Of a stretch of 64,000 nucleotides of DNA, positions 1 through 52,100 are shown piece by piece. A program made the translations under genes and the position numbers. Position 1 is the stretch's first letter; every line of letters starts with the position of its first letter. Source of the stretch: Acinetobacter phage YMC13/03/R2096; sequence record KM672662.1; one strand, given 5' to 3'. The notes under the pieces are model-generated. The model did no database searches. It was not told the origin of the DNA and saw nothing but the letters and a program-made list of their open reading frames with translations.

Positions 1-45
1 CAAGCCAAATATCTTTAGGTATATACATTATTTACTCCAAGAGTT

Positions 46-1479: not shown

Positions 1480-1882
1480 CTGATTTTGCTTTAGAAGCTC
1501 GTTTTGGTTGAGATTTTGTAGCTACTTCTGCTGGTTTTTGTTTTTCAACTTCCACTTCAACTTCTTTAGGAATCTCAGCTTGTTTTACTGGTTCTTCTTT
1601 TGGTTGTTCACCAACTTTGAATGCAGCATAAGCTAATGGAAAGTGTTTACTTACAAGATCATCTGTACCATTAACAAAAACAATGAAACGTGCACTAGAA
1701 CCTAATGCGATATTTCCTTGTGTTCTTGAAAGCACAGTTTCAGACAATTCAAATCCCCACTTGCTAAGCACAAGAAGATTCTGATTACTCTTGTGAAAAG
1801 AGTTTGAATAGACACTTACTTCGATTTTACCATCTTCAAGTCGTCTAAGTTTTGGTGCAAATGTTGTATTTAATTCGGACAT
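1466..1882 (-). CDS. hypothetical protein with K/E-rich C-terminus
   Basis: 138-aa ORF tightly packed against its neighbours. Confidence 0.5.
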   Translation of the reverse strand: MSELNTTFAPKLRRLEDGKIEVSVYSNSFHKSNQNLLVLSKWGFELSETVLSRTQGNIALGSSARFIVFVNGTDDLVSKHFPLAYAAFKVGEQPKEEPVKQAEIPKEVEVEVEKQKPAEVATKSQPKRASKAKSVDSE

Positions 1883-1892
1883 TAAGAACTCC

Positions 1893-2081
1893 TTAACCTT
1901 CTAATCCTTCACGTTTATTACTTCGCTTACTTTTTCGATCTAAAGTACGGGCTTTATCATTAAGTTTTCTCTGAAGTTTATCGCCAAGACCATAACCATC
2001 AGACATCTCAACACTAAGACCAAGACCATAACCATCTTTATAAGCTTTGCGTTTAGCCACGAATACACTCCTATGTGACAA
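1893..2081 (-). CDS. small hypothetical protein
   Basis: 62-aa ORF in the same operon. Confidence 0.3.
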   Translation of the reverse strand: MSHRSVFVAKRKAYKDGYGLGLSVEMSDGYGLGDKLQRKLNDKARTLDRKSKRSNKREGLEG

Positions 2082-2137
2082 ATAAGTTACTTTACTACTT
2101 AAATAAGTTTACCACGTTTTAACAATGTGTCAACTAT

Positions 2138-2374
2138 TTATTCCTCTTCATCATCTCCACCGTATCCAAATCTTGAATTAAAGAAACATTCTACAAGTGT
2201 GCATATGATGTTGTATATGATAATTGAGAGAATTCCCACTGTCAAGATACTTTGATCAAATCCCCACCCAACGAAATCCAAGGCAAAGAGTAAGCACTTA
2301 GTTATAACAGCAGATAAAAATATAATACAAAAGTTTAAAACCAAATAGAGTAGTTGCAAACTAGACTCACTCAT
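2138..2374 (-). CDS. small membrane protein
   Basis: 78-aa hydrophobic ORF. Confidence 0.4.
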   Translation of the reverse strand: MSESSLQLLYLVLNFCIIFLSAVITKCLLFALDFVGWGFDQSILTVGILSIIIYNIICTLVECFFNSRFGYGGDDEEE

Positions 2375-2397
2375 AACACCTCCTTGTGAGGATAACC

Positions 2398-2634
2398 TCA
2401 GATCTCTTCCAAGTCATCATAGCCTGTTAGGAGTTTCTCAGATGGCATTTCTTCCACAGATAACTCCCCACATTTTGAACATTCTAAGGTTATTACAGGC
2501 ATCTCTATCCCAAATAACTCATTGAATTCCTTACCACTTTCCTTAAAAATCAAAACACCAGAACCTTTACAGGACCCATTGGTGTGTTTTACAGGTTTAT
2601 CTTTCATAAACACCATCCATGAAAAAGAGGGCAC
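2398..2634 (-). CDS. small hypothetical protein
   Basis: 78-aa ORF. Confidence 0.4.
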   Translation of the reverse strand: MPSFSWMVFMKDKPVKHTNGSCKGSGVLIFKESGKEFNELFGIEMPVITLECSKCGELSVEEMPSEKLLTGYDDLEEI

Positions 2635-2652
2635 TAAGCCCTCAATTTTTAA

Positions 2653-3075
2653 TTAAATATCATACCGAACTCTAATTATCTCACGCTTATCAAGATCTGT
2701 CAAGATACCATAAGCATAACAATTATTCTGTATGTAATTGTCAACAGTTTGAATATTGAAGGATACCCACCTTGGTGACTTACCCTCACTAATTGTACAC
2801 AATAAGCAACTACCATTTCGTATGTGTAGAACAGTCAACATTCCTTCAATACTAACCATCCAGTGTGTAGCAGATTCTAAGTGCTCTTTACGACCCACAA
2901 ATGTTCGAACAACAGATGAATGGACACTTTTCATCTGAATGGCACCTAGAAAGCTGTTGTGCATGACTAATCTAGGTTTCCCACACTGGTATTGACCATT
3001 GTTATAGCTAGTTACACCCTTTAAAGCCATCATCCACCCCAAATTGTTATACAAACCATAAGGACAGTATAACAA
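2653..3075 (-). CDS. hypothetical protein
   Basis: 140-aa ORF. Confidence 0.45.
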   Translation of the reverse strand: MLYCPYGLYNNLGWMMALKGVTSYNNGQYQCGKPRLVMHNSFLGAIQMKSVHSSVVRTFVGRKEHLESATHWMVSIEGMLTVLHIRNGSCLLCTISEGKSPRWVSFNIQTVDNYIQNNCYAYGILTDLDKREIIRVRYDI

Positions 3076-3230
3076 ACAATTCCTGTACAGACAACAAGAG
3101 CAGTATATTTATTCAAAATAAAAACCCCCACATTAGTTGAAGTAGTTTAAACCCAACAAAGGCAAAACCTCCCATAATAACCGATATCACAAGCATACCT
3201 ATAATCATCACAACTATTTTCCAGTTCATG

Positions 3231-3464
3231 TTAATCCCCTTTAGTTGTACCTACATTCTTACCACATAAGAATGCATAAAGCATGACAGGTGCCCAGAAG
3301 AACATAACAAATATGATTATCAGTGATAAAGCAAATGAATTAACAGCTTGTTTTTTCTGTGCTCGATCCAACTTAATCATAACTGCCAGCTTACCAGCAT
3401 TAAAGCAACCGTACATCAGATATAAAGAAACTAAAAAACTTAACGTGTCAGTATTGATCATCAA
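3231..3464 (-). CDS. small membrane protein
   Basis: 77-aa ORF with two TM helices. Confidence 0.4.
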   Translation of the reverse strand: MMINTDTLSFLVSLYLMYGCFNAGKLAVMIKLDRAQKKQAVNSFALSLIIIFVMFFWAPVMLYAFLCGKNVGTTKGD

Positions 3465-3478
3465 TTATCTCCAAAAGA

Positions 3479-3775
3479 TTAATGTTTATGTATGAAGTTT
3501 AAATCACCTAGATTTTTAATGCAAGCATCAATTGTAGCTTGTACACGCTTGTCTAAGGCTTCTAAATCATTTAAGTCACTAGATATTACCTCCATGAACT
3601 TAACACGCTCTAAACAAGCCTTAACAGTCGAGAAATAACCTATAGGTGTTCTTCGAATTTCACCCTCTTGCTTTCCACTTTTTGCAATACTTAAGCTGTA
3701 CAAGATGAAATTCATATCATCCGAACCTAAAGCATAACCTACTTGATCTTTTGTAGGTTCTTTTAACACCTTCAT
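3479..3775 (-). CDS. hypothetical protein
   Basis: 98-aa ORF. Confidence 0.45.
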   Translation of the reverse strand: MKVLKEPTKDQVGYALGSDDMNFILYSLSIAKSGKQEGEIRRTPIGYFSTVKACLERVKFMEVISSDLNDLEALDKRVQATIDACIKNLGDLNFIHKH

Positions 3776-3820
3776 CTTACTCTCCTTGTAAAAATCTTTC
3801 AGGCAGTTGATATGGAATCA

Positions 3821-4192
3821 TTATAAACCTCCAAGGTGTCCTGATTTATGAATTAATTCTGATACAAAACCTTTCAACTCTTCCGATACCTGACCAGACT
3901 CTAATCTCTTCTTATAAGAAACCTCAAGGTCAGAAATAGTGACTCTATGTAAATCTTTATACACTGTGTCATGTTCTCCATAATAACCATACCACAATCT
4001 ACAAGCATATACTATAAAGAAATCTACATCTGTTTTTTTAGATATCTCAACATTGTTTCCATCTCTTGGTTGCGCCCACTTCCAACCAAGACCATGAATT
4101 AATGCAAGTATGTAAAGCTTTTCACTAGGTTTCATACCCTGAACAACAATTAATTGATCATCATTCACACAACTTCTCCCAACAAGAATCAA
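3821..4192 (-). CDS. hypothetical protein
   Basis: 123-aa ORF. Confidence 0.45.
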   Translation of the reverse strand: MILVGRSCVNDDQLIVVQGMKPSEKLYILALIHGLGWKWAQPRDGNNVEISKKTDVDFFIVYACRLWYGYYGEHDTVYKDLHRVTISDLEVSYKKRLESGQVSEELKGFVSELIHKSGHLGGL

Positions 4193-4487
4193 ACCACTCA
4201 GACTTAGCTACAAAGTAACCTTTTCCATCATACATAATGTAATCACCCATATTAGCAATCTGTAATCCATACTCTGGATCAGTGAATTCAAACTCACGTA
4301 TATCACATGTGGTTATTGCCGAAGGCTTATATACACCACCAACTTCCATCCAAAGTGCTAGAGTAGCAATGTCGGTGGAGGAACCACCAAACATTACCGC
4401 AATAACAACCTTACCACTTACCTTGTTCTTACAACGTTTGGCAGTTCTCATTATTAAGCTCCAGATACTTGGTTTTCGGTGCACCAC
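4161..4487 (-). CDS. hypothetical protein
   Basis: 108-aa ORF. Confidence 0.45.
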   Translation of the reverse strand: MVHRKPSIWSLIMRTAKRCKNKVSGKVVIAVMFGGSSTDIATLALWMEVGGVYKPSAITTCDIREFEFTDPEYGLQIANMGDYIMYDGKGYFVAKSEWFDSCWEKLCE

Positions 4488-4726
4488 TCTTTCATGTCAG
4501 TTTTGGTAATAGTTGCACTATCCACATCAATCGTAATCAGGTCGTAACCTTCAGGCTCATTTCTGGTGTACTGTTCTTTGTAAACACCATCACGGAATAG
4601 TCGATTTAACTGTAGGGCATTTTTCAGTGCACCCAAAGAGGTCCAGCATTTACCATTTTTTGTCACAGTCATACCAGCAGCTAGGTACTTACCGTTCTTT
4701 TTACCACGAATCATGTAAATTTTCAT
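4454..4726 (-). CDS. hypothetical protein
   Basis: 90-aa ORF. Confidence 0.45.
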   Translation of the reverse strand: MKIYMIRGKKNGKYLAAGMTVTKNGKCWTSLGALKNALQLNRLFRDGVYKEQYTRNEPEGYDLITIDVDSATITKTDMKEWCTENQVSGA

Positions 4727-4741
4727 AATTACTCCAAAATA

Positions 4742-5206
4742 TCAATGAAAAATAACTGCTACTAACCCTATTACCAACAGAACTGACATACATATTGCAA
4801 AAATCTGGAATGCATCAGTTCTACAATAGTATCCTAACACACCCTTCCATCCACGAGCAAGAGCAACATCAAAGTTTTTAACTTGAAACTTGCACTTGTA
4901 TGCATCATTTCTACGAACCGTACATGAACCATAGCTATAATCGATGTCGTAATCTTTGAGAGGTGAATTTCCAACATCTCGATAGAGATCCCTCCCATCA
5001 TAACTTTCAAAGTCAAAACGAACATTCATCAGGTCTTCAAACTCAATGACATGCTTAATGAACTGCTTTTTAAGGAAAGCTTTTTTATCCTCTTCATCTT
5101 GCTGGACCTTTTTCTCAGTAGCTACCTTTTGCATGTGTTCATGATACCACTCAGGTTTTTGTTCCTCTTCTTTCATCTTTTTCTTCACAAGATTCTTGAT
5201 CATCAA
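4742..5206 (-). CDS. hypothetical protein with C-terminal TM anchor
   Basis: 154-aa ORF with a hydrophobic C-terminus. Confidence 0.45.
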   Translation of the reverse strand: MMIKNLVKKKMKEEEQKPEWYHEHMQKVATEKKVQQDEEDKKAFLKKQFIKHVIEFEDLMNVRFDFESYDGRDLYRDVGNSPLKDYDIDYSYGSCTVRRNDAYKCKFQVKNFDVALARGWKGVLGYYCRTDAFQIFAICMSVLLVIGLVAVIFH

Positions 5207-5341
5207 GTGCTTCCTCCAAATCCTGTCTTACAATACCCTCATCATAACCCAGCTTAACATCTTTCTTTTTATCCCGAAAGGTCTTAGGCTGGTTAAATTT
5301 GTGAAGATTTTTCGCTACAGGGTTCCTATAACCTTTAGCCA

Positions 5342-5554
5342 TTAGATTAAGTGCTCAAATCTAAGGTATTCATAAACCTTTTCACCATTTAGTGTAACTT
5401 CACCAACACTACCAACAATTTCAATCTGAAGGACATTATCACCTTTACTCAAGGTGTGCACCTCCATCTTACCACAACGTACAGACTGGATGTTGTCTGC
5501 ACTTTTAAACTCATCAATCAAACCGAAAAGTTTATATTCATCATAAGTTTGCAT
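5342..5554 (-). CDS. small hypothetical protein
   Basis: 70-aa ORF. Confidence 0.4.
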   Translation of the reverse strand: MQTYDEYKLFGLIDEFKSADNIQSVRCGKMEVHTLSKGDNVLQIEIVGSVGEVTLNGEKVYEYLRFEHLI

Positions 5555-5689
5555 AGATAGTTATTAACTCCAAAATAATAATAAAAATAAACATCATAAG
5601 TAAAAACTGTTTGAAATTCCTACTTACCATAATAGCCATACCAAAAAAGCAAGCATTTAAGGCCAACATCAATACAAAACCTAAAAGTG

Positions 5690-6178
5690 TCATTTCTTGT
5701 ATTCCTCTATAGCCTCCTGAAGTGTTGGGTATACAATGTAGTAAATATACTGAGAGAAACTTCTAAAGTCATCGTACCACTCTTGAAATGACTCTTCTTT
5801 ATAATTGAACCATTTATCAAGAACTCGCTTAGCTTCTAAACTAACATAAACACTTGACGATACCCCTGAAGTATCTAACAACTCCAAAACCTTCATGTCT
5901 TGCTCATACTTAACACGTTTAGCTTTAGCATATTGTCGAAACCGAGATTGTTGACCCGTGTAAATTTTCAAACGCTTCAAGGATTTCTTACCCCACTCAA
6001 TACCTAAGAAGCTATGTTGGTAAACAGCACATTCTTCATATGACAACTTTTCCATCACCTCAAAGAACTTTGCACGATCCTCAAGGTACTTCTTGAGGTT
6101 TTTTATCGCTTCTTTCTGCATGTAGCTAATACTAGTGCTTGTCAAATTGACAAACCCTACAGGATTAAATTCAGACAT
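5690..6178 (-). CDS. hypothetical protein
   Basis: 162-aa ORF. Confidence 0.5.
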   Translation of the reverse strand: MSEFNPVGFVNLTSTSISYMQKEAIKNLKKYLEDRAKFFEVMEKLSYEECAVYQHSFLGIEWGKKSLKRLKIYTGQQSRFRQYAKAKRVKYEQDMKVLELLDTSGVSSSVYVSLEAKRVLDKWFNYKEESFQEWYDDFRSFSQYIYYIVYPTLQEAIEEYKK

Positions 6179-6191
6179 CTAAACTCTCCTA

Positions 6192-6572
6192 TTATTTATA
6201 ATTAACTTTAGTTACTTCAACCTTTTCAATATCGCCACCAGCACCATGAGTGTAGAAATCACTAATGGTAACAGCGAGTTGCACAATATCCGAAAGTTTT
6301 CCTTGATATACACCAAGTTTTGGACGATGGTGATAACCACCAAAATCACAGTTTGGGTCCTCTCCATACACAGTCCACAAACCTTCTTCATCCAGAGAGT
6401 GCTTCTTTAACAACCTTTTCCCAGCATAACTACCAAGCCAACCTTTTGCTTTCTTGTCATGCTTATACTTCTCAGATTCCTCATATCTAAGAGCTTCTTC
6501 AGGCGTGCTAAACTCTTTACCATCATCTGCAACATAAATAGTTTTAACGTGCATTTTATCCTCACTAATCAA
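6192..6572 (-). CDS. hypothetical protein
   Basis: 126-aa ORF. Confidence 0.5.
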   Translation of the reverse strand: MISEDKMHVKTIYVADDGKEFSTPEEALRYEESEKYKHDKKAKGWLGSYAGKRLLKKHSLDEEGLWTVYGEDPNCDFGGYHHRPKLGVYQGKLSDIVQLAVTISDFYTHGAGGDIEKVEVTKVNYK

Positions 6573-6582
6573 TATCTTTCAA

Positions 6583-7809
6583 CTAATCTTTGTTTAACCA
6601 ATCTCTAAACAAACTATACATACGTTTTGATGCTATTGCAAGCACAATTTTCTCACCTTTACGTATTCTTGAACGCCAAACCCATTGAAGCATCTCCGAC
6701 AAGGCAAAAACCTCACGGGAAATCGGATATCCATAATCTTGGAGGTATGACTCCACACTAACCATCGGGTAACGATCATAACAGTGCACTAAAACTGACT
6801 TGTCAGCATAATCATTAGTTGCTCTTGTCTGAACAGGTAACCAACAGTAACTCCAAGAGCCATCGTTACTTCTTTTACGGTAATAACCTTTTGGTTTAAC
6901 TAAGTTTTTACTTCCAACATGTCTTTCTTTTGGTATTGTGTACATTAAATCATCTGGTGTGGCTTTATACTTCATGGCAACACTTCTAATGTATTTACCA
7001 ACCACATCAAGTTGAGCCTGACTAGCTCTTTTATACCAACTACTTGACAAACCAGTGGAAATTGACAAGTCAGCCCTAGGTTCAACCAATTCAATTAAAT
7101 CACGAATGGTGTCTTTAGATGTCTTCGTTACCTCAATTTCTCTAAAAGGTTTAGATTCAACACCCTTCAACCTTAAGAAACGATCTAAAATGTTACCTTC
7201 AAACATATAAGTGAGGATAACCACCCTTTTAGCCACTGTCATTAACCTGATAGGTAGTTGAGTCACCATCATTAAATTACTTCTCTTGGCAACATAAAGG
7301 CACTGACTATCACAATACTGCTTCAACATGTAATATTTATGAGCTTTCCCAACTGGCTGGTCGCACACCCAAGATAGCATACCATCATGTGGATCTACTG
7401 AAACTTTCTCATTCGAGTACAACCACTTATAATCATCTATGGAATACTTATCAAAACCTTCGATAACATTGATCTCCTCGTCAATCACAACGGTGTAGCC
7501 ATGATATTCAACAAGGTCTAAGTGCTCGTTGGTCAGGGACATGTACAGGCTATGCGTACAAGCAATATTTTCACCATTACTTAGAAGTTCAAGTAAGTGC
7601 TCCGATTTAGTATCATGATCTTCAGTGGTTGGGTAGGAGAATGATATACGGCTAACCGCTTGGGATAACCTTCCACCATCACCCACCTCAGAGAGTAAAG
7701 GAGAAACATAAATATATTTCTCTTCATGGTACTTTTCCATCCACTTAATAATTCCAGTGGTTTTATGTGAACCCATAATAGAATCAAGAACTTCAATTAC
7801 CTCAGCCAT
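6583..7809 (-). CDS. hypothetical protein with degenerate P-loop-like N-terminus
   Basis: 408-aa ORF. It carries a GSHKTTG segment followed by a hydrophobic-DEE segment (VVIDEE) that resemble deviant Walker A/B motifs. The nearby genes give no hint of its family. Confidence 0.5.
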   Translation of the reverse strand: MAEVIEVLDSIMGSHKTTGIIKWMEKYHEEKYIYVSPLLSEVGDGGRLSQAVSRISFSYPTTEDHDTKSEHLLELLSNGENIACTHSLYMSLTNEHLDLVEYHGYTVVIDEEINVIEGFDKYSIDDYKWLYSNEKVSVDPHDGMLSWVCDQPVGKAHKYYMLKQYCDSQCLYVAKRSNLMMVTQLPIRLMTVAKRVVILTYMFEGNILDRFLRLKGVESKPFREIEVTKTSKDTIRDLIELVEPRADLSISTGLSSSWYKRASQAQLDVVGKYIRSVAMKYKATPDDLMYTIPKERHVGSKNLVKPKGYYRKRSNDGSWSYCWLPVQTRATNDYADKSVLVHCYDRYPMVSVESYLQDYGYPISREVFALSEMLQWVWRSRIRKGEKIVLAIASKRMYSLFRDWLNKD

Positions 7810-8043
7810 TTAATCTCCAAAATATTCACGTAGTGTATCTATCCAATACTGATTATACTTCAAGTCATACTCTATTTCTGCAACCTCACGGGCAGTAAAC
7901 CACCAAACACCATTCTCATTACATGTGTTTTCTACAACAAAATCACCATCCGAGTTTTTATAACAAATAAAAATTAAATCTAAACCTTCGTGATAAAAGG
8001 CATGTTTCTTAGCTTTTTCCATCACACATCCTCCACTTTGCAA
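7810..8043 (-). CDS. small hypothetical protein
   Basis: 77-aa ORF. Confidence 0.4.
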   Translation of the reverse strand: MQSGGCVMEKAKKHAFYHEGLDLIFICYKNSDGDFVVENTCNENGVWWFTAREVAEIEYDLKYNQYWIDTLREYFGD

Positions 8044-8300
8044 TTCGGTGAAATGTGGTTTTCTAGTTTGTCTAGTGTTTCCAATTCGCCCAAATCCGAG
8101 GGTTTATCAATACAGCCAATGAGGTTTTCTGTGTTGGAATCGTCACTTATCAACTCTAAAAAGTTCTCATTAAGAACTTTTTCAAACTCTGGATGCAATT
8201 CTTGCAAACTCCCAATTGGCTTGGGCATAGTGGGCATGTCAATATCACTAAACTCACTCATGGCTGGCTCCTTCCAAACTTTCCAAGTTCTTTTCTTCAA
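8022..8300 (-). CDS. acidic hypothetical protein
   Basis: 92-aa ORF. Confidence 0.4.
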   Translation of the reverse strand: MKKRTWKVWKEPAMSEFSDIDMPTMPKPIGSLQELHPEFEKVLNENFLELISDDSNTENLIGCIDKPSDLGELETLDKLENHISPNCKVEDV

Positions 8301-8517
8301 CCCAGATTAGGCCTTCTCCAGTTTCAACCTGCCAAGAATCATCATTGTGTGGATGCGGTCTAACAGCAGTAACTACATTTCCTGCAAACTCTAATGTGCC
8401 GCGCGATTTAAGGACCTCATCGACTTCAACCAAGCGGTATTGCTTCATTGATTTGATTGATGAGCCGTCTTTGTCTTGTGCTAGCAAGTGAATTGTTTTA
8501 TGTGTATTTGATTTCAT
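8254..8517 (-). CDS. hypothetical protein
   Basis: 87-aa ORF. Confidence 0.4.
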   Translation of the reverse strand: MKSNTHKTIHLLAQDKDGSSIKSMKQYRLVEVDEVLKSRGTLEFAGNVVTAVRPHPHNDDSWQVETGEGLIWVEEKNLESLEGASHE

Positions 8518-8774
8518 TTTTTTATCGTCCGAATCATGATTGCAAAGGGAATTAGGAATGGAGCCACAATCAGGCAGATAATTCCAAGCACCCCAATCAG
8601 TAAAAGTTTTGTGGCGTATGCAAAGTCACGGAATGCTTGTTTATAGAACTGCCCCGCATTGCTAAACTCATGCCATTCATGTGTATAAAGCTCTTTAAAA
8701 TCCTTTAGTGTGGCTTTCACCTCATTCTTGAATTTACTCATCCCCGCCTCCGTATATTGATTCGTATGCTGCAA
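8514..8774 (-). CDS. small membrane protein
   Basis: 86-aa ORF with a C-terminal TM helix. Confidence 0.4.
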   Translation of the reverse strand: MQHTNQYTEAGMSKFKNEVKATLKDFKELYTHEWHEFSNAGQFYKQAFRDFAYATKLLLIGVLGIICLIVAPFLIPFAIMIRTIKK

Positions 8775-9114
8775 TAGCTGCTAGCAATGGCTGGTTATAT
8801 ACAAAACAATCTTTATGAGCTTCTGAACGTGCTGCTTTTAATCCACCTAAGCTATTTACTAAATCAACCGACTCCACCAGACGCTTGAGTTCGGAAAGTG
8901 GTTTAATTACCTCACTGGTAAATATCTGATATGGAACAACGCTTCTTCTCCAATGCTTATTGGTCCACACATAGCATTCAGTTTCAGAAACATTCTTTGT
9001 GTATCTAGTTCCGCAACTTAAATCCCTATAGTGAGTTGCATCTTCTGGCGCCATTTCTAAAATTTGCTTAGCCTCTGGCAACCCCTGCTCACGAATAAAC
9101 TGTTCTGGTTTCAT
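8734..9114 (-). CDS. hypothetical protein
   Basis: 126-aa ORF. Confidence 0.45.
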   Translation of the reverse strand: MKPEQFIREQGLPEAKQILEMAPEDATHYRDLSCGTRYTKNVSETECYVWTNKHWRRSVVPYQIFTSEVIKPLSELKRLVESVDLVNSLGGLKAARSEAHKDCFVYNQPLLAAIAAYESIYGGGDE

Positions 9115-9363
9115 TTAGGAACTCCTTTACTGATCATTGGACAGTATATCGCATGTTCTTTAATACTTCTACCACAAAATTGACATTTTACCATATTAGT
9201 TCTCCATGCACCATTTAAGTGCACATTCCAAGCTTTCTGCTTCAGCAACCTGCCGACCATCAATTTCAGAAATGTAAAATGCTAAAGCTCCCTCTTCAAT
9301 TTCATAACCATTGCATGAAATATAGTCACCATCAACTATCACAACAGCTTCTAAAGTCATGCA

Positions 9364-9570
9364 CTAACCCTCAAAAATGTTATTATCCATGATATCAGAA
9401 ATAACTTCATCAATCTCTAAATTTGTTTCTTCGATAAGTTTATCGTACTTTTCTTTTTCCGCAAATACATCCCTCTCAGTCTTCAACTTCTCAAGACGAA
9501 CATGAAGAGAGTGTAACTGAGTGTGAAGCCTTGCGAGATTACCTGTGGTTTCTAAGTCAAACATTGTCAT
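9364..9570 (-). CDS. small hypothetical protein
   Basis: 68-aa ORF. Confidence 0.4.
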   Translation of the reverse strand: MTMFDLETTGNLARLHTQLHSLHVRLEKLKTERDVFAEKEKYDKLIEETNLEIDEVISDIMDNNIFEG

Positions 9571-9871
9571 CCTCCATTAAATTGTAGGCAGAAATTAGGC
9601 TAGTTATCAACTGATCCAACTCACTCTTCGAGAGAATTCCAACTTTTTGACATGAAACTTCATCAAGCATATTTCTTCTTGTATCATAGAAGTTAATACT
9701 ATTATCTTCTTGCACACTGATTAAATCTTGCTCACACAGGAAGTTTGGTTTGAAGTCGTCACTTATAACAATTCTCAAACCATTAGCATCACCATCACTA
9801 TCAAGAAAAGTGTAGACAAACACCCCTTTCTCTTTACCGATACCTCTTTTATCATTGGTAGTTATTTTCAT
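9557..9871 (-). CDS. hypothetical protein
   Basis: 104-aa ORF. Confidence 0.45.
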   Translation of the reverse strand: MKITTNDKRGIGKEKGVFVYTFLDSDGDANGLRIVISDDFKPNFLCEQDLISVQEDNSINFYDTRRNMLDEVSCQKVGILSKSELDQLITSLISAYNLMEDDNV

Positions 9872-10142
9872 AAGATCTCTGACTCCCTAAATAACTTTCT
9901 AAAATAACATCATATAAATCATCTTGGTTATTTATGTAGTAGCTATTGTAAGGGCTTAGCACCAAGATTTCAGATGGTCTATATGCCCTACCTTCTTCAG
10001 TGACTATTGTGGATTTTTCACTGTTGTAATACTCACTATTAAGTTTCAGCTTACCAACCAAAACCCTACCACAATCTCTGGGTATAAACTGTACTAGATC
10101 ACCATCTCTGTATGAACTCACCCATTTTCCATAAATGATCAT
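9852..10142 (-). CDS. hypothetical protein
   Basis: 96-aa ORF. Confidence 0.45.
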   Translation of the reverse strand: MIIYGKWVSSYRDGDLVQFIPRDCGRVLVGKLKLNSEYYNSEKSTIVTEEGRAYRPSEILVLSPYNSYYINNQDDLYDVILESYLGSQRSYENNYQ

Positions 10143-10423
10143 TCTTCATCCCCCATAGAAACCAACCAAGATATATGAGTTTTCCCAGTAAGTACAAATG
10201 CTGTATAACCAGACTTCCTTAACTCCTCCAAGGTTCTTTTTGTAACTTTTTTGTCAAGCGATATACTGAACGCACCTGAACTTGCTGCACTCTTAATCTT
10301 TTTATAGCACTCTTCAAGATCTTCTTCTGTGTTACCCTCATCAAAACTATCAGCCATCTTTCTAGCTTCTTTTGCAGTTATCTTTTCCATTTTTATCTCC
10401 TTAAGATAATTCATTAAGTGCAT
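10139..10423 (-). CDS. hypothetical protein
   Basis: 94-aa ORF. Confidence 0.45.
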   Translation of the reverse strand: MHLMNYLKEIKMEKITAKEARKMADSFDEGNTEEDLEECYKKIKSAASSGAFSISLDKKVTKRTLEELRKSGYTAFVLTGKTHISWLVSMGDEE

Positions 10424-10607
10424 CTACAGCAAAGCGATGCGGGTTATTGAGAGTAAGCAAGCCAATAAAAAACATAAGGATGTACATTACCGGTGCAAAC
10501 AAGAACCAAATTACAAAAGCCATCCAAATCAGCTTTACTCTTTTTTCTGGATATTCTTTCCACTGGTGCTTAAATGACTTAAGCTGCCTAGTTGCATATT
10601 TTCTCAT
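10401..10607 (-). CDS. small membrane protein, first gene of the leftward early operon
   Basis: 68-aa ORF with a TM helix. It is the gene nearest the divergent promoter region. Confidence 0.45.
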   Translation of the reverse strand: MRKYATRQLKSFKHQWKEYPEKRVKLIWMAFVIWFLFAPVMYILMFFIGLLTLNNPHRFAVDALNELS

Positions 10608-10782
10608 AAAACCTCCTAAAAATTTTGTTTATTTTAGCACTAAAAATCACCAAATACAAGCACCATAAAAATCACCTTTGGAAACCTCACTTCCAGAAAT
10701 TAAAAAACGGCAAAAAATTTAACTTAAAAAACAAGAACTTGTAGCACTAAAATTTATCGTCCCTTGAGAAAAGAAACATCGA

Positions 10783-10950
10783 AAAGGATACCTTAAAAAG
10801 AAAATAAAAGAGCACATAAAAACTTACCTAAAAGGATAACCTAAAGGTTAAATTTGGTGGGTGGGTAATTTTTAAAACAAACAACCCAAACAAAGGAAAA
10901 ACCTAAAGGTTAAAACTTAAGAAGATCCCTAAAGGATACCTAAAGGTACA
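10783..10950. promoter_or_regulatory. cluster of operator-like inverted repeats in the divergent control region
   Basis: Four copies of TAACC/TACC-TAAA-GGTTA/GGTA at 10837-10850, 10900-10912, 10928-10935 and 10937-10948. AAAGGATACC half-sites lie at 10785 and 10931. Confidence 0.5.
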
Positions 10951-10965
10951 TCTTAAAGAAACAAC

Positions 10966-10993
10966 TTGACAAAGAGATAAACTGTGCTATTGT
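10966..10993 (+). promoter_or_regulatory. sigma70-like promoter (TTGACA, 16-nt spacer, TATTGT)
   Basis: Consensus -35 element plus a plausible -10 element lie 80 bp upstream of the first rightward gene. Confidence 0.5.
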
Positions 10994-11076
10994 AATTAGT
11001 ATAGGATAACCACAATAAGTAAACATATTGATCACTAGGATGTGATTGTCCCAATAACTTACAAGGAAGGTTTCAT

Positions 11077-11386: not shown

Positions 11387-12028
11387 GTGAATGGCATGTT
11401 AGTCTTTAAAACACTTGTCTTGGATTTCCTGACAGGTTTAGTTGGTTCTTTACTTAAAAACTGGAAGTTAGCCTTAATTAGTTTCTTGATTTTATTCTCA
11501 GTGCTTTATACCAGTCACCTTAAAGGTGAGTTAAAAGATGCTAAAACTGATTTGGATACTCAAAAGGCATATCACAGTGCATACGTACAGGCATATGAAA
11601 AGGAATTCCAGAAGAGATATGCAGAGGTCGTGCACATAAACAAACGATTAGTAAAAGATTTGGAGGAAGTCAATGGACAAATTGAAAGGAAAAATCAAGA
11701 AGTTGAAGCTACTTATGCCGATAACCGTGCTCTTCTTGATGAGCTTACTCGTAGGTTGTCAAAGCAGCAAGATTCAGGAACCAAAGGTGGGGGTTGGGTC
11801 ACTACCGATTCCAGTGTACCAGCTACCAAAGCTACAGAACCCGAATCCACAAGCAGATCATTCATCGAATGTGCACAAGAGCTTACAGAAATGGGTCGGG
11901 AAGCAGACTCCTTAGCAATTGACCTACAGGCAGTTATCCAAAGTCACAATAATTATTTAACTGAGATAGAGATTTTAAACTCAAGTAACTTAAATGGAAA
12001 TTCCAAGGAATTAGATAAGAGGGATTAA
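11387..12028 (+). CDS. membrane-anchored coiled-coil protein (Rz-like spanin or fibre-assembly candidate)
   Basis: 213-aa ORF with an N-terminal TM helix followed by heptad-rich sequence. Confidence 0.45.
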   Translation: MNGMLVFKTLVLDFLTGLVGSLLKNWKLALISFLILFSVLYTSHLKGELKDAKTDLDTQKAYHSAYVQAYEKEFQKRYAEVVHINKRLVKDLEEVNGQIERKNQEVEATYADNRALLDELTRRLSKQQDSGTKGGGWVTTDSSVPATKATEPESTSRSFIECAQELTEMGREADSLAIDLQAVIQSHNNYLTEIEILNSSNLNGNSKELDKRD

Positions 12029-16050: not shown

Positions 16051-16136
16051 GGGTGATGTTGGGGTGTTGGTCAACCCCATCAGACTGTAAATCTGACGTG
16101 AAAGCTGTCTAGGTTCGAATCCTAGATCACCCACCA
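16051..16136 (+). tRNA. tRNA-Tyr (GTA)
   Basis: Acceptor GGGTGAT/ATCACCC. Anticodon loop is ctGTAaa. Long variable arm. T-arm is GGTTCGAATCC. CCA is encoded. Confidence 0.8.
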
Positions 16137-16139
16137 AAT

Positions 16140-16214
16140 AGTACCTTAGTTCAGGGGTAGAACGCAGAACTGATAATTCTGAGGTCGATGGTTCGAAACC
16201 ATCAGGTACTACCA
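16140..16214 (+). tRNA. tRNA-Ile (GAT)
   Basis: Acceptor AGTACCT/AGGTACT pairs perfectly. Loop is ctGATaa. CCA is encoded. Confidence 0.8.
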
Positions 16215-16243
16215 ATTTAAAAGTTTTTAAAAGTTTATTCAGG

Positions 16244-16315
16244 TCTAGTGTAGCACAACGGTAGTGCAGCAGACTGTTAATCTGTTGGTTGTTGGTTCGA
16301 ATCCAGCCTCTAGAG
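16244..16315 (+). tRNA. tRNA-Asn (GTT)
   Basis: Loop ctGTTaa, D-stem GCAC/GTGC and G73. The acceptor has one mismatch and no CCA is encoded. Confidence 0.55.
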
Positions 16316-17057
16316 CCTGAGTAAATTAAGAATTACCCTTCGGGGTATGGGTCGTGTATAACCCTTAGATAAACTGCAAAACAGTATAAAGTCGTAACGG
16401 CAGTTATGGCGCAGAGTAAAAATCTGTCAAGTACACACTCAAGGTATCATACTTATGTGGCGTAGAGCCAATCGGTGTAAACCATTTAAGTATGGGGGTG
16501 TAATGCTCCTGAGTCGATAGGCAATAAGAGAACTTGAAGGTATCTAGCGAAGTTGATTGTCAAGTCAAAACGCTGTTTACCATTGTGAGAGGTATATAGA
16601 GTTTAACAGGTGGTGCTGAATCTCGTAGTCCTAAACCAAGTGGACAATATATGCTTGAAACATCGTGCATGGTAAAGCACATTAGGTAGTGTGGTATTGA
16701 TGGGTTCAAAAGATCTGTTAGCCACAGAGAAACCACTATCTATGCAATACAAATTTCATTTTAGGAAAAAATTAAATTCAAAAGTGTTTCTCACGTTGGC
16801 ATGAAAGGTGCTTACATAGTAATGGGTTGTCCATTGCACATTTAACCTGAAAGGTTATTTGTATTTTCATGAAAGGATTATGTTTGGTAGGCATACTAGC
16901 ATAGTTTGAGTATTGGGAGAGTAGTTCCAACGTCTAAGAGTGGTTAGCTATACTGACCAGCACTGATCACTACTATATAAAGTATAGTGGATAATGAGGG
17001 AAAAGATAATCCTCTCAAGGTGGTCATTTAAACGTGTAATCTCAGCGTTTTACTTGT

Positions 17058-17132
17058 GGCTCTGTAGCATAGTGGATTATGCGCCTCCCTGTCTAGGAGA
17101 AAAACGCCAGTTCGAGTCTGGTCAGAGTCGCC
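17058..17132 (+). tRNA. tRNA-Asp (GTC)
   Basis: Acceptor GGCTCTG/CAGAGTC. Loop is ctGTCta. G73. CCA is encoded. Confidence 0.75.
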
Positions 17133-17136
17133 AGTA

Positions 17137-17211
17137 TTGTCGTATAGTGTAATGGTTAGCACAGAAGACTTTGACTCTTCTAGTTTAGGTTCGAGTCCTA
17201 ATTCGACTACC
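17137..17211 (+). tRNA. tRNA-Gln (TTG)
   Basis: Anticodon stem GAAGA/TCTTC pairs perfectly. Loop is ctTTGac. T-arm is TTAGG-TTCGAGT-CCTAA. The acceptor has one mismatch. Confidence 0.6.
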
Positions 17212-17214
17212 AAA

Positions 17215-17290
17215 TGGGTCACTAGCACAATGGTAGTGCAGTTGCTTTGCAAGCATCAGGTTAAGGGTTCGAGTCCCTTGTGTATCCACC
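17215..17290 (+). tRNA. tRNA-like element, anticodon probably TGC (Ala). Acceptor pairing is poor.
   Basis: D-stem GCAC/GTGC, loop ttTGCaa, T-arm AAGGG-TTCGAGT-CCCTT and a CCA end. Only 5 of 7 acceptor base pairs could be formed by hand. Confidence 0.35.
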
Positions 17291-17292
17291 AA

Positions 17293-17368
17293 TATTCCAT
17301 TCGACTAGCGGTTAGGTCGCTTCCCTTTCAAGGAAGTAGCACGAGTTCGAATCTCGTATGGAATACCA
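17293..17368 (+). tRNA. tRNA-Glu (TTC)
   Basis: Acceptor ATTCCAT/ATGGAAT pairs perfectly. Stem CTTCC/GGAAG. Loop ctTTCaa. CCA is encoded. Confidence 0.8.
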
Positions 17369-17370
17369 AT

Positions 17371-17447
17371 AGGACGTTAGCTCAGTTGGTTAGAGCAAGA
17401 GCCTTTTAAGTTCGAGGTCATAGGTTCAAATCCTATACGTCCTACCA
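17371..17447 (+). tRNA. tRNA-Lys (TTT)
   Basis: Acceptor AGGACGT/ACGTCCT pairs perfectly. D-arm is GCTCAGTTGGTTAGAGC. Loop ctTTTaa. CCA is encoded. Confidence 0.8.
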
Positions 17448-17452
17448 ACAAT

Positions 17453-17526
17453 GGTGACTTTGGTGTAATGGTTTGCATCACTCCCTGTGAAGGAGAAGGT
17501 CAGGGTTCAAATCCCGAAGTCACACC
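17453..17526 (+). tRNA. tRNA-His (GTG) with G-1
   Basis: Loop ctGTGaa. Acceptor GTGACTT/AAGTCAC is preceded by an extra G. CCA is encoded. Confidence 0.65.
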
Positions 17527-18225
17527 AAGAATTTTAAGAATTTCAAACGAGTAGAGGTACAGTCCTGAAAGTTTGAAAGTGGGGCGACACCTGCCTGAAG
17601 TAGTAGCTAATAATGGCCTGTTAGTGAATCTAAGTGGTGTGACTTAACTGACTTGGAGAGAAAGGTCGGGGCAGAGCACAAGTAGCTGAGATGGATTAGC
17701 GCTACCCTGAAGAGGTTGAGAGGTTGGATCGTTACCAACATTGTGCACCAAATTTTTAAAAGAAGAATTATTTTAGGATTACCATAACCTAAAGGCTCGA
17801 AGGGGCGGTCTGCAACATCGTTGTTGGTGAGTTGAAGTCTCACATGGTAATCCAAAGTGATTTTTATAGAGGTTAAACCAGATAGGTTCTGGGACACCCT
17901 GCTAAGGTGATCGTGTTAGAAATAGCATTCGGATCGAGACCGATGGCCTCTGCCAAATTTGTTGTGCGCTCCACAGGTTGATCCTGTTACGGTTATCCTC
18001 AAGACCAGACCGCAACAAAGCAACATCAATGGCTTGTCTAAAGTAACGCTGTTGATGGGGCAAATGCAGACACCGATTCGCCTCTGACCTAGTTAAGCAC
18101 ACTAATCGGTTTTTTCTTAGGGCTATTGGACAGGTAATTACCCCTCCTTTAGTTACGACAAGATATCTTCGTGGCTCGCTACCTTGAAGGCATCCCAGTT
18201 AGGGTTCTGGTTAAAAACTCACTAC

Positions 18226-18300
18226 AGTCCCTTAGCTCAATCGGGAGAGCAACACTCTTACAAGGTGAAGGTAGTAGGTTCGAAACCTACAGGGACTACC
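18226..18300 (+). tRNA. tRNA-Val (TAC)
   Basis: Acceptor AGTCCCT/AGGGACT pairs perfectly. Loop ctTACaa. T-arm is GTAGG-TTCGAAA-CCTAC. CCA is encoded. Confidence 0.75.
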
Positions 18301-18301
18301 A

Positions 18302-18391
18302 AGGTGGGTAGCGTCAAGGTGACAAAGCGGGCTTGAACCCCGTGCCAATTGTGATGAGCAGTTGAGAGTTCGATTCTTTTACCCATCGCCA
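18302..18391 (+). tRNA. tRNA-Ser (TGA), class II
   Basis: Acceptor GGTGGGT/ACCCATC. Stem GCGGG/CCCGT. Loop ctTGAac. Long variable arm. G73 and CCA. Confidence 0.6.
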
Positions 18392-18392
18392 A

Positions 18393-18466
18393 GCGTTTAT
18401 AGTGTAGTGGTAACACCCTGTACTTCCAATTCAGTATCTTCGGTTCGAATCCGAATAGACGCTCCA
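18393..18466 (+). tRNA. tRNA-Gly (TCC)
   Basis: Acceptor GCGTTTA/TAGACGC. Loop ctTCCaa. T-arm is TTCGG-TTCGAAT-CCGAA. U73 and CCA. Confidence 0.75.
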
Positions 18467-18477
18467 GATTATGTTTA

Positions 18478-18600
18478 TGGACACTTCCTAAGGTTCTTTC
18501 TACAGGTTCGAAACTGTTTTAAGAATTGCTGGTGCTAGGTTTAGCGTCAAGAATCATTCGAAGGGTTCTTGGGGTGGTGAGTTCGATTCTCACAGTGTTC
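18478..18600 (+). ncRNA. aberrant 123-nt tRNA-like element
   Basis: GGACACT pairs with AGTGTTC on 7 of 7 positions, enclosing about 110 nt. Inside are two T-arm-like hairpins (ACAGG-TTCGAAA-CTGT and GTGAG-TTCGATT-CTCAC) and a 6-bp stem CAAGAA/TTCTTG. There is no canonical anticodon arm and no CCA. Confidence 0.3.
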
Positions 18601-18619
18601 CCCCTATTTTAAAGTTTAT

Positions 18620-18696
18620 CTCTGTGTAGCTCAGTTTGGTAGAGCACTCGCTTTGGGAGTGAGGGGTCGTAAGTTCAATTCTTACTACAGAGACCA
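18620..18696 (+). tRNA. tRNA-Pro (TGG)
   Basis: Acceptor CTCTGTG/TACAGAG. Stem CTCGC/GTGAG. Loop ttTGGga. T-arm is GTAAG-TTCAATT-CTTAC. CCA is encoded. Confidence 0.7.
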
Positions 18697-18783
18697 GTTA
18701 TGAAGTGTTTGTACAGCTATCAGCTCACCGTTTAAAGGATACGGACAAGTCGGCTCGACTAAAGACTCACTTCATATGTTTTT

Positions 18784-18860
18784 GGGTAGTTGAAGGGAAT
18801 GGCATACCTTTCACGCTTAGAACGTGAAGTTTCTGAGTTCGAGTCTCAGACTACCTACCA
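18784..18860 (+). tRNA. class-I tRNA with anticodon TAG, presumably Leu (CUA/CUG)
   Basis: Acceptor GGGTAGT/ACTACCT. Stem TCACG/CGTGA pairs perfectly. Loop ctTAGaa. Variable loop is 5 nt. A73 and CCA. Confidence 0.6.
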
Positions 18861-18866
18861 AATTCT

Positions 18867-18942
18867 GGGGATATAGCCCAACGGCAGAGGCAAGAGGTTT
18901 AAACCCTCTCAAGTTTCAGTTCGAATCTGAATATCCCTACCA
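18867..18942 (+). tRNA. class-I tRNA with anticodon TAA, presumably Leu (UUA/UUG)
   Basis: Acceptor GGGGATA/TATCCCT. Stem AGAGG/CCTCT pairs perfectly. Loop ttTAAac. Variable loop is 5 nt. T-arm is TTCAG-TTCGAAT-CTGAA. A73 and CCA. Confidence 0.6.
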
Positions 18943-18957
18943 GTTTAGGAGTGCTAC

Positions 18958-19239
18958 ATGGAAGTATTACTTGTTAGTGATTGTAGATGCCAAGAGCGTT
19001 ATGACTTTGCAGATATTGTAAAGGATGCTCAAGAACAAGGTATCAAAATTAAGTACACATTAGTTCCTAAGAAGATATCCTATGAAGATAGAACTTACAC
19101 ATTTGTTAATGTTGAAGATCTCACTAAGGATAAAAGTTGTATTGTTGGTAAGAAGTTTGATGATGTCTATTTGACACCAGAAGCTAAAGATGCTATACCT
19201 TTAGGGTTGCTATCATTTATACTTACAAGAATACGTTAA
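18958..19239 (+). CDS. small hypothetical protein embedded in tRNA cluster
   Basis: 93-aa ORF. An AGGAG site lies 8 nt upstream of the ATG. Confidence 0.5.
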   Translation: MEVLLVSDCRCQERYDFADIVKDAQEQGIKIKYTLVPKKISYEDRTYTFVNVEDLTKDKSCIVGKKFDDVYLTPEAKDAIPLGLLSFILTRIR

Positions 19240-19246
19240 GTTTTAA

Positions 19247-19334
19247 GTCCCTACACCCTCCAAGAGCCTTCTAAGCTCTCGACATTAAATAGGGGGAAGG
19301 TAGTCAGAGTGTTCGATTCACTGTGGGGACTCCA
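19247..19334 (+). tRNA. atypical tRNA-like element, anticodon TCT (Arg?). It has a rudimentary D-arm and a 27-nt variable region.
   Basis: Acceptor GTCCCTA/TGGGGAC and stem AGAGC/GCTCT pair perfectly. Loop ctTCTaa. T-arm is GAGTG-TTCGATT-CACTG. CCA is encoded. Confidence 0.4.
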
Positions 19335-19335
19335 A

Positions 19336-19411
19336 GCCGAATTAGCTCAGTTGGTAGAGCAGCGCACTTGTAATGCGAAGGTCGTAGACTCGGATTCTAC
19401 ATTCGGCACCA
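19336..19411 (+). tRNA. tRNA-Thr (TGT)
   Basis: Acceptor GCCGAAT/ATTCGGC pairs perfectly. D-arm is GCTCAGTTGGTAGAGC. Loop ctTGTaa. T-loop is CTCGGAT. CCA is encoded. Confidence 0.75.
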
Positions 19412-19417
19412 TATTTA

Positions 19418-19507
19418 GGTCGTGTAGCTTAAAGAAAGCAAGAGGATTTATAAACCTTTTCACTAGATAAGTGCTTGATGTGGGGGCAGTACCCACCACG
19501 ACTACCA
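19418..19507 (+). tRNA. class-II tRNA-like element with a 9-nt anticodon loop (AUUUAUAAA); identity unresolved
   Basis: Acceptor GGTCGTG/CACGACT. D-stem GCTT/AAGC. Stem AGAGG/CCTTT encloses the 9-nt loop. Long variable arm. T-arm is GTGGG-GGCAGTA-CCCAC. A73 and CCA. Confidence 0.4.
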
Positions 19508-19509
19508 AT

Positions 19510-19579
19510 AAGTCCCCCTCTGGGAGGGAAGAGGTCTCCAAAACCACTTAGCTGTGTTCGATTCACAGGGGATTTGCCA
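19510..19579 (+). tRNA. tRNA-Trp (CCA), short 70-nt form
   Basis: Acceptor AAGTCCC/GGGATTT. Loop ctCCAaa. T-arm is CTGTG-TTCGATT-CACAG. G73 and CCA. The D-arm is compact. Confidence 0.55.
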
Positions 19580-19729
19580 AATTAGATTAAGATGTTGGTG
19601 CGTGACAACCTTAATCGGCATGATTTTAGTTTATGTCGATGTGATAAACATGGCTAGATAGATATGTCGATAAAAACTAGAAATTAAAACACGTAGTATT
19701 GAAATGTTAAAAATAATTAAACAAAACAC

Positions 19730-19758
19730 TTGACAAATAGATTTTTAGTGTTATATAT
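19730..19758 (+). promoter_or_regulatory. promoter (TTGACA, 16-17-nt spacer, TATATA/TATAAT) upstream of tRNA-Met and thioredoxin
   Basis: Near-consensus -35 and -10 elements. Confidence 0.5.
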
Positions 19759-19783
19759 AATATATAAGCAATTAAGTTTTCAT

Positions 19784-19858
19784 AGCGAGGTAGTGTAACG
19801 GTTTGCACAGGGGACTCATAATCCTCTGGTTTGGGTTCGAATCCCAACTTCGCTTCCA
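19784..19858 (+). tRNA. tRNA-Met/fMet or Ile2 (CAT)
   Basis: Acceptor AGCGAGG/CTTCGCT. Stem GGGGA/TCCTC. Loop ctCATaa. T-arm is TTGGG-TTCGAAT-CCCAA. CCA is encoded. Confidence 0.7.
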
Positions 19859-20240: not shown

Positions 20241-20408
20241 TCCAACCCCACTAACCAAATAACTGTTATGGATGACACAAGTCAATAATAGGGAATAATT
20301 AAGGTTAGTGGGTTTTCTTATTTATAATGACATTTCGTGTAGATTTAAGAGGTGGTGCTTACTTGTCCTAGGCATCACCCCTTAAGTTATCAACATAGAG
20401 GACAAGCT

Positions 20409-52053: not shown

Positions 52054-52100
52054 TTCTAATAAGGTAATAAATAGGGTTTTAAATATGTTTCTTTTTTAAG

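Follow-up and report, generated by a model that had tools for sequence, protein, structure and literature searches.

A cluster of five to seven CCTAAAGG-type copies, all in the same direction, lies just upstream of a strong promoter at positions 10783-10960 of the Acinetobacter phage YMC13/03/R2096 sequence. In sister genomes, the terminal repeat has arrays of the same unit, GATAACC-TAAA-GGTT, immediately outside each of its two edges, and this is the new element of the analysis. Tentatively, we read the cluster as operator-like: a set of sites for a putative DNA-binding protein that would modulate the rightward promoter, P_R, and possibly the balance between P_R and a leftward promoter, P_L. 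This is the most economical account and a real possibility, if short of probable.

The window, by which we mean the whole 64-kb stretch of DNA analysed, is part of a genome and stops short of the genome ends. Hence, the whole Bestia record and the ends of AM24 and Ab15 were compared as well. Five A. baumannii myophages (Bestia, Herod, AM24, Ab15 and Mithridates, 97-102 kb each) match the region of interest at 93-95% nucleotide identity, and the source of the window is an Acinetobacter myophage of the AM24/Bestia group. In a review, the five are listed as 'cluster 13' of the unclassified Caudoviricetes (PMC11126041). The next relatives by major capsid protein, which are BS46/TaPaz-like, Saclayvirus-like and Felix O1-like phages, are only ~33% identical. 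Searches for diverged relatives of the intergenic spacer, or of the 99-amino-acid and spanin proteins encoded beside it, returned the same five phages at 94-98% identity (blastn in distant mode, tblastn). For the spacer, IMG/VR yielded one partial contig only, and a search of 5.8 billion proteins with the products of the flanking genes found near-identical proteins only. An informative comparative test is therefore impossible. Our literature search found no paper on the cluster repeats or on the termini of AM24-group phages.

We next describe the cluster itself; the coordinates are collected in Table 1. A preliminary description had reported an array of near-identical sites at 10783-10950, between divergent operons, and both points hold. 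Three exact 12-mers of the form WACCTAAAGGTW, a fourth CCTAAAGG core and degenerate copies are present, between a first leftward gene that starts at 10607 and a first rightward gene that starts at 11077. With up to one mismatch allowed, WACCTAAAGGTW has 17 matches in the 64-kb window, against 2.15 ± 1.5 expected. The motif search across the window was similarly clear for the CCTAAAGG core: nine occurrences in 64 kb against 1.76 expected, four of them clustered (at 10840, 10902, 10928 and 10939). Four same-strand copies of this core within 120 bp are far outside what shuffled sequence produces; none of 500 Markov-1 shuffles reached even three, and the maximum, two, was seen once. Words of the form CC-N-AAGG are enriched genome-wide (85 in the window, 23 expected). 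Two other counts were set aside. Enrichment of GGATAACC (11 against 1.3 expected) falls, outside the spacer, mostly antisense in coding sequence and is probably a coding bias. A scan of IMG/VR for CCTAAAGG-N2-8-CCTAAAGG matched at least 120 unrelated contigs, which is about chance by a rough estimate.

Table 1. Repeat copies, promoters and genes in and around the intergenic cluster (positions in the window).
Feature	Position	Strand	Details
Small ORFan gene block	46-10607	leftward	early genes, all ORFans
Non-coding spacer	10608-11076		469 bp, between divergent transcription units
Candidate leftward promoter P_L	10631-10659	-	TTGTAT, 17 nt, TGc-TAAAAT; found by eye, -35 matches only 3/6
Weak promoter-like site	10724-10753		9/12 consensus matches
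Distal degenerate copy AAAGGATACCTTAAAAAG (GGATACC + CCTTAAAAAG)	10785-10800	+	family D1, 73% identity to reference copy
Double unit TACCTAAAAGGATAACCTAAAGGTT	10825-10849	+	degenerate TACCTAAAAGGA at 10825-10836, then exact 12-mer AACCTAAAGGTT at 10838-10849
CCTAAAAGG copy, 5-nt centre	10827-10835	+	inside double unit 10825-10849
GGATAACC	10834-10841	+	inside double unit 10825-10849
Exact 15-mer GATAACCTAAAGGTT	10835-10849	+	inside double unit 10825-10849
Exact WACCTAAAGGTW 12-mer	10838-10849	+	AACCTAAAGGTT
G-run GGTGGGTGGG	10856-10865	+	between distal and proximal copies
Unit AAGGAAAAACCTAAAGGTTA	10893-10912	+	contains exact 12-mer AACCTAAAGGTT at 10900-10911; 62 bp from 10838 copy; families D2-D4
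Exact WACCTAAAGGTW 12-mer	10900-10911	+	AACCTAAAGGTT
Proximal pair ATCCCTAAAGGATACCTAAAGGTA	10925-10948	+	CCTAAAGG at 10928 and 10939; 12-mer TACCTAAAGGTA at 10937-10948
Exact WACCTAAAGGTW 12-mer	10937-10948	+	TACCTAAAGGTA
Degenerate copy CATCTTAAAGAA	10949-10960	+	ends 6 bp before -35; CACC/CAAC-TTAAAG in relatives
Rightward sigma-70-type promoter P_R	10966-10993	+	TTGACA, 16 nt, TGc-TATTGT; 10/12 matches, TG before -10
GGATAACC half-unit	11004-11011	+	about +4 to +11 of P_R; family D7
First rightward gene, 99 aa	11077-11376	+	basic N-terminus, four Cys in zinc-ribbon-like pattern

The sites had been described as inverted repeats. Arms of 4 bp (WACC/GGTW) do form a palindrome, but the TAAA between them is not palindromic, and the recurrent unit is longer than first given (GGATAACCTAAAGGTT). 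Because this asymmetric centre lies between the arms, each copy has a direction, and all of the copies point one way. Identities of 15-16 nt link copies within the array, and AAAGGATACC is present at both 10785 and 10931. The centre is 4 nt long in some copies and 5 nt in others. Start-to-start gaps are 13, 62, 26 and 11 bp, so that the cluster is dispersed and not a head-to-tail tandem; Tandem Repeats Finder (TRF) detects only 2.1 copies of an 11-bp unit, at 10924-10946.

Directly downstream, the consensus promoter of the preliminary description is present as described, 6 bp beyond the end of the cluster. Apart from one base in its spacer, P_R is invariant in the six genomes. Downstream of it lie the small gene for the 99-amino-acid, Cys-rich and zinc-ribbon-like protein, the spanin pair (an Rz-like spanin and, embedded in its gene, a lipoprotein ORF), the tailspike, the endolysin, 17 tRNAs, the terminase and the structural genes. 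Transcription from P_R would start near 11000, and the centres of the sites would then be at about -45, -58, -69, -95, -157 and -169. None of them covers the -35 or -10 element; only the GGATAACC half-unit is found on the other side, at +4 to +11. Here the 9-mer AGGATAACC, present at 10833-10841, recurs at 11003-11011, just past the predicted start. The P_L candidate is upstream of an AGGAGG ribosome-binding site and the ATG at 10607. It is not listed by the consensus promoter scan because its -35 element is weak. The nearest full copy of the repeat is 166 bp upstream of the P_L -35 element and the distal degenerate copy is ~125-140 bp upstream. A scan for terminators between 10300 and 11400 found none.

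The 99-amino-acid protein is the nearest candidate for a binder encoded in cis. Its zinc-ribbon matches in Pfam are below threshold only, it belongs to phrog_31523, a family of unassigned function, and its AlphaFold model is unusable (pLDDT 50.5). The leader of this gene contains a perfect 5-bp inverted repeat, ATCAC-TAGGAT-GTGAT (11031-11046, + strand), ~30 nt before the ribosome-binding site. Invariant in the six genomes, it might fold into a hairpin in the leader or be an operator of a second kind. Two more repeats are found in the left half of the spacer, TAGCACTAAAA and TAAAAATCACC, each present twice (10635-10645 and 10742-10752; 10641-10651 and 10666-10676). The sequence GTGCTA recurs at the extended -10 of candidate promoters, and TAAAAATCACC is found too in an 870-bp non-coding stretch inside the Bestia terminal repeat.

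Conservation had been named as a check on the repeats. They are kept in the relatives, but these are ~97% identical everywhere and the result is uninformative. Thus, the alignment of the spacer from six genomes has a mean column identity of 97%, and identity per 100-bp window is 0.92-0.98 in the spacer against 0.96-0.98 in the flanking genes. Since the flanking genes are as similar as the spacer, conservation cannot discriminate function. All six genomes have the cluster in the same place against P_R. In Mithridates, precisely one 12-bp unit is missing, in the proximal pair. Among 20 positions in the CC/GG arms of the five clean copies there is one change, which only shifts the register. The centres have four changes in 21 positions, compared with 26 in 400 for the rest of the spacer (p = 0.05). 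This is a weak hint that the CC/GG arms may be the constrained part of the unit.

The Ab15 record contains an exact direct terminal repeat of 5,018 bp (1-5018 = 97287-102304, no mismatches). Just to the left of this repeat, GATAGCCTGAAGGTT, GATAACTTCTAGGTT, GATAACCTCTGGGTT and GATAACCTCTAGGTT follow one another with a 24-bp period (3.3 copies by TRF). The array ends ~23 bp before the left edge, and CCTGAAAGG and GTAAAGGC lead on to the boundary. Seven matches to the 15-mer of the window were found in 9 kb of Ab15, where 0.68 are expected. Beyond the right edge, GAACCTCCCTAAAGGTACAACCCCGAAGGATAACC begins after ~20-30 bp, as two 35-nt units in Bestia, one in AM24 and a degenerate remnant in Ab15. 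There is no recognisable promoter beside this right-flank array. The window array corresponds to Bestia 20378-20500, which is ~15 kb to the right of the repeat edge at ~5.5 kb. Even so far apart, the two Bestia arrays have an identical 14-mer, CCTAAAGGTACAAC, and the complement of the window G-run (ACCACCCACC) adjoins the right-flank array. On the sequences compared, the repeat family has three arrays with one polarity: one on each side of the terminal repeat and, internally, the window array as the third. A model of purely local operators, as in the preliminary description, agrees with the layout of the window but does not predict the same unit at the flanks of the terminal repeat in sister genomes.

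Some further properties of these genome ends were noted. The G-run (10856-10865, + strand) and its complement ACCACCCACCAG (Bestia ~5635-5647) are an inverted pair that brackets the 15-kb leftward block; the complement reads CTGGTGG and agrees with the E. coli Chi site at 7 of 8 bases. Only one copy of the terminal repeat seems to be present in the records of AM24, Bestia, Herod and Mithridates, and those of AM24 and Bestia start within ~50 bp of its edge. In phage Ab5, of cluster 14, there is also an exact direct terminal repeat (1-3864 = 92738-96601). The long terminal repeats of Ab15 and Ab5 carry the first rightward small genes and both are flanked by short-repeat arrays. At the 3,864-bp repeat of Ab5, these arrays consist of a different word (TAGTGT), and Ab5 has no internal array. 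The layout with two flanking stations and one internal station is thus not replicated there. Terminal repeats flanked by short repeats recur in these phages, but the three-station layout has so far been seen in the AM24 group only.

Direct observation covers the repeats with their statistics, orientation and position, the consensus of the promoter and the sister arrays. In the mechanism that we favour, one sequence-specific protein, most likely encoded by the phage, would bind the cluster at 10783-10960 and read the unit (G)GATAACC-TAAA-GGTT, or WWCC-N3-5-GGWW. The sites would cover the upstream face of P_R, a strong host-type promoter. Their occupancy would time rightward transcription by host RNA polymerase against the leftward early transcription. 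The sister arrays just outside the two edges of the terminal repeat would be further targets of this putative protein. It is protein binding, the identity of the binder and repression or activation as its outcome that we infer here.

We read the cluster as regulatory because the clustering is far beyond chance, the copies are co-oriented and they adjoin an extended -10 promoter with 10 of 12 consensus matches. Several other features are consistent with protein sites. The half-unit recurs just past the predicted start, the CC/GG arms are essentially unchanged in six genomes where the centres vary, the 15-mer is enriched genome-wide (with four copies at the Ab15 left flank) and explanations based on DNA or RNA structure gave no signal. 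The genome architecture, shared with cluster-14 phages at 33% capsid identity, is old. Taken together, this age and the near-identity of the copies (15-16 nt within the array, 14 nt to the distant Bestia array) argue for selection on the word and not decay. The clean loss of one unit in Mithridates is as expected for modular sites. Conversely, searches of 30 flanking ORFs against Pfam and PHROGs found no HTH, RHH or other DNA-binding domain, although a protein with no such annotation could still be the binder. The irregular spacing and the 4-5-nt centre are unusual for a fixed dimeric operator, and the P_R hexamers are free of sites. Furthermore, because the right-edge sister array has no promoter, control of transcription cannot be the common denominator of all three arrays. 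The preliminary description, in which the layout fitted operators for a repressor or activator, was right about the layout, and its reading is the one we prefer; a binder among the 30 flanking ORFs and an overlap with the -35 or -10 element were not found.

The window array might instead be an internal member of T7-type junction repeats that serve DNA handling and not promoter control. Such repeats could be recognised by the terminase or by end-processing factors, cause a pause or stop in packaging or genome entry, or act in replication of the ends. The place beside P_R would then be incidental, or would hold the late half of the genome out of play. The immediate proximity of the sister arrays to the terminal repeat is consistent with this: ~23 bp for the 24-bp-period GATAACCTCTAGGTT units of Ab15 and ~20-30 bp for GAACCTCCCTAAAGGTACAACCCCGAAGGATAACC in Bestia and AM24. 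So are the 11 CCTAAAG words at the T7 terminal repeat, with related words before its right copy, the single polarity of all arrays, which a directional process predicts, and a right-edge array with no promoter. However, the window array is ~15 kb from the repeat edge and not at the location that junction repeats occupy, and T7 and Ab5 have no internal array. We know of no established function for the T7 repeats themselves, and the terminal repeat here is known from one deposited record and a second phage from the same depositors. On balance, a role in DNA handling seems rather unlikely to us. Still, the link to the terminal-repeat flanks keeps it alive. The same link motivates an overlapping and improbable idea, that one DNA-binding factor, or one physical process of fixed polarity, reads the same CC-N-GG word at three places. 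Two of these stations lie to the left and right of the terminal repeat, and the third is the internal site between the early leftward promoter and the rightward promoter for lysis and structural genes. The internal station would be a checkpoint that links genome handling with the switch from early to late. If so, handling could mean stepwise DNA entry, similar to the first-step transfer of T5, or recognition of concatemer junctions when DNA is cut and packaged. If entry paused, for example, the cell would already contain P_L, with P_R and everything to the right of it still outside. It would also provide, by analogy, a function for the 40-year-old CCTAAAG repeats of T7.

There are three other explanations. 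Short repeats may have spread by slippage or recombination between the terminal-repeat flanks and the spacer, and been tolerated in a non-coding gap as neutral relics. In keeping with this, copy number and sequence of the sister arrays vary freely among near-identical phages (two units in Bestia, one in AM24, a remnant in Ab15), Mithridates has a deletion of one unit, the region is no more conserved than neighbouring genes and a cluster-14 phage has no internal array at all. We nevertheless regard a relic as unlikely; three exact 12-mers and identical units of 15-16 nt persist, substitutions spare the CC/GG arms, every copy keeps the single orientation and none of the six genomes departs from the placement against a strong promoter. 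Iterons of a replication origin had been offered in the preliminary description as the alternative to operators. The repeats would bind an initiator and the A/T-rich centre TAATTTTTAAAA (~10867-10878), between quasi-symmetric arms, would be where the DNA unwinds. Transcription from P_R or P_L might be needed for firing, as with T7-type origins. Among the phage genes are those for a T7-like primase-helicase and a family A polymerase, and replisomes of this type use promoter-linked origins. The G+C content of the region is 27-35%, with a strong excess of A on the + strand, the cumulative GC skew has its minimum at 10-12 kb, and 10838-10912 is an imperfect hyphenated inverted repeat around an A/T palindrome. 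Yet the skew follows gene direction throughout, is thereby confounded with transcription, and flips again at 46 and 52 kb. The units are short (12-16 bp) and irregularly spaced, whereas iterons are at least three regular units of 17-22 bp. Between 10608 and 11076 there is no DnaA box (up to one mismatch) or IHF consensus, GGTTATCC shares only TTATCC with the DnaA box and was rejected as one, no initiator-like gene was found nearby and a second divergent region at ~52 kb, beside replication genes, is a better candidate. The origin alternative is weakened to the point where we think it distinctly improbable. Finally, the effect could be independent of protein: bent, UP-element-like DNA that boosts P_R, or a structured or Shine-Dalgarno-rich RNA made from the weak promoter-like site. 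This is very improbable. The region is A-rich with A-tracts that recur at 11-13 bp within pairs, the 9/12 site at 10724-10753 could transcribe the array, AAAGG resembles a Shine-Dalgarno sequence and the exact 15-mer stands just before a start codon at Bestia 87049. In a wedge model, however, curvature over 10780-10960 is average, at 14-30 degrees against a window mean of 19 ± 10, and the end-to-end ratio is at the 22nd percentile. The copies overall are not in helical phase, and curvature alone does not need strictly conserved CC/GG arms. RNA folding z-scores for the array are -1.4 (+ strand) and -2.2 (- strand), and Rfam returned no family at the gathering threshold or at E<0.1, the only listed match having E=0.3.

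The second divergent spacer (51572-52177) is next to the primase-helicase and polymerase genes. Two 20-nt repeats, CAGACYGATTTGATCAWATG, occur 63 bp apart at 51971-52137, each with the palindrome ATTTGATCAAAT. Also in this spacer are a sigma-70-like promoter (52101) and a DnaA box without mismatches (52129). To judge from these motifs, 51971-52137 is more origin-like than the cluster at 10.8 kb.

Other elements of the window were recorded alongside. The 213-amino-acid protein encoded at 11387-12028 (+ strand) matches an Rz-like spanin family (phrog_2466, E=9e-7). Inside its gene, in another frame, is an ORF of 80 codons (11673-11915, + strand) with an LLVGC lipobox. The two resemble an i-spanin/o-spanin pair of the embedded type, and the annotation in relatives is 'hypothetical' only. 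Within the cluster of 17 tRNAs (16051-19858) there is a full-length match to GOLLD RNA (RF02032; 16682-17048, + strand, 217.6 bits, E=3e-60), which is not annotated in the sister records examined. A 700-bp stretch between tRNA genes (17527-18226) has no convincing ORF and no Rfam match at the gathering threshold, and might be a further non-coding RNA; it includes CATAACCTAAAGGCT at 17783, which nearly matches the repeat unit. Two group I introns (RF00028) were found at 20975-21244 and 21360-21582 (+ strand; 78.8 and 96.6 bits), between ORFs at 20352-20903 and 21742-22905. The Bestia terminase large subunit is uninterrupted at the matching place, and the terminase gene of this phage may be split by introns. 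Hairpins that resemble Rho-independent terminators, and are built from the same kind of word as the cluster, are CCCTGAAGG...CCTTCAGGG and CCCCTAAAGGAATTCCTTTAGGGG (1427-1450 and 46040-46080; Bestia 91339-91360).

AM24-group phages are under development against A. baumannii, and the array with P_R is the clearest cis-regulatory handle so far. Should the array be a plain operator cluster, the result would be ordinary, with a use in annotation and engineering. None of this is new in kind; of interest is a T7-like word family around a long terminal repeat and again at the divergence of early and late genes. A CCTAAAG-type word on both flanks of the 5-kb repeat of an unrelated myovirus, and internally, is a genetically tractable comparative route to the role of junction repeats.

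How does the cluster compare with known systems? As with lambda OR/OL, a region of divergent promoters contains several similar short sites that are partly dyad-symmetric, with a half-site just past the start. Unlike at OR/OL, no site here is over the -35 or -10 element, the arms of only 4 bp enclose an asymmetric centre whose length varies, and the spacing is irregular. No repressor-like gene was recognised nearby, and the phage is virulent. The iteron origins of lambda ori and plasmids are similar in having direct repeats in an A/T-rich non-coding gap, with divergent transcription and a skew switch. Their units are 17-22 bp, whereas those here are 12-16 bp and not regularly phased, and an initiator gene, DnaA box and IHF site are all missing. 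In phage T5, the inner end of the 10-kb terminal repeat carries an injection-stop region. The right-edge sister array is alike, as a repeat-rich non-coding stretch beyond a long terminal repeat with first-expressed genes; the window array differs in not being at a repeat edge.

The nearest parallel is in T7, where SRL and SRR, reportedly described by Dunn and Studier in 1983, are arrays of the heptamer CCTAAAG bordering the 160-bp terminal repeat. We know of no established function for these repeats, and the analogy therefore supplies no mechanism. In the T7 sequence, the 160-bp terminal repeat is exact. CCTAAAG occurs 11 times on the + strand at nt 17-338, three times inside the repeat and eight times just after it. 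Just before the right repeat copy are CCTAAAG, CCTAAGG and CCTATAGG. There is no internal CCTAAAG cluster. Measured against SRL and SRR, the window array is a co-oriented cluster of a short word (four exact CCTAAAGG and two to three degenerate copies, all on the + strand), but only the sister arrays are directly outside a terminal repeat. As the window is short of the genome ends, the exact terminal repeat is known from the Ab15 sister record. The systems differ in host, in virion type (a myovirus here) and in repeat length (5 kb here, 160 bp in T7), and the window array, ~15 kb away from the edge of the repeat, is an internal one. The constant part also differs, being the CC...GG arms here, around a varying centre, and the whole heptamer in T7. 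In both, the core word is the same, the copies are co-oriented, imperfect and 11-26 bp apart, and the unit is found, in the sister genomes, directly outside both edges of the terminal repeat. In both, moreover, the left array is upstream of strong promoters for the host polymerase, A1-A3 in T7 and P_R here.
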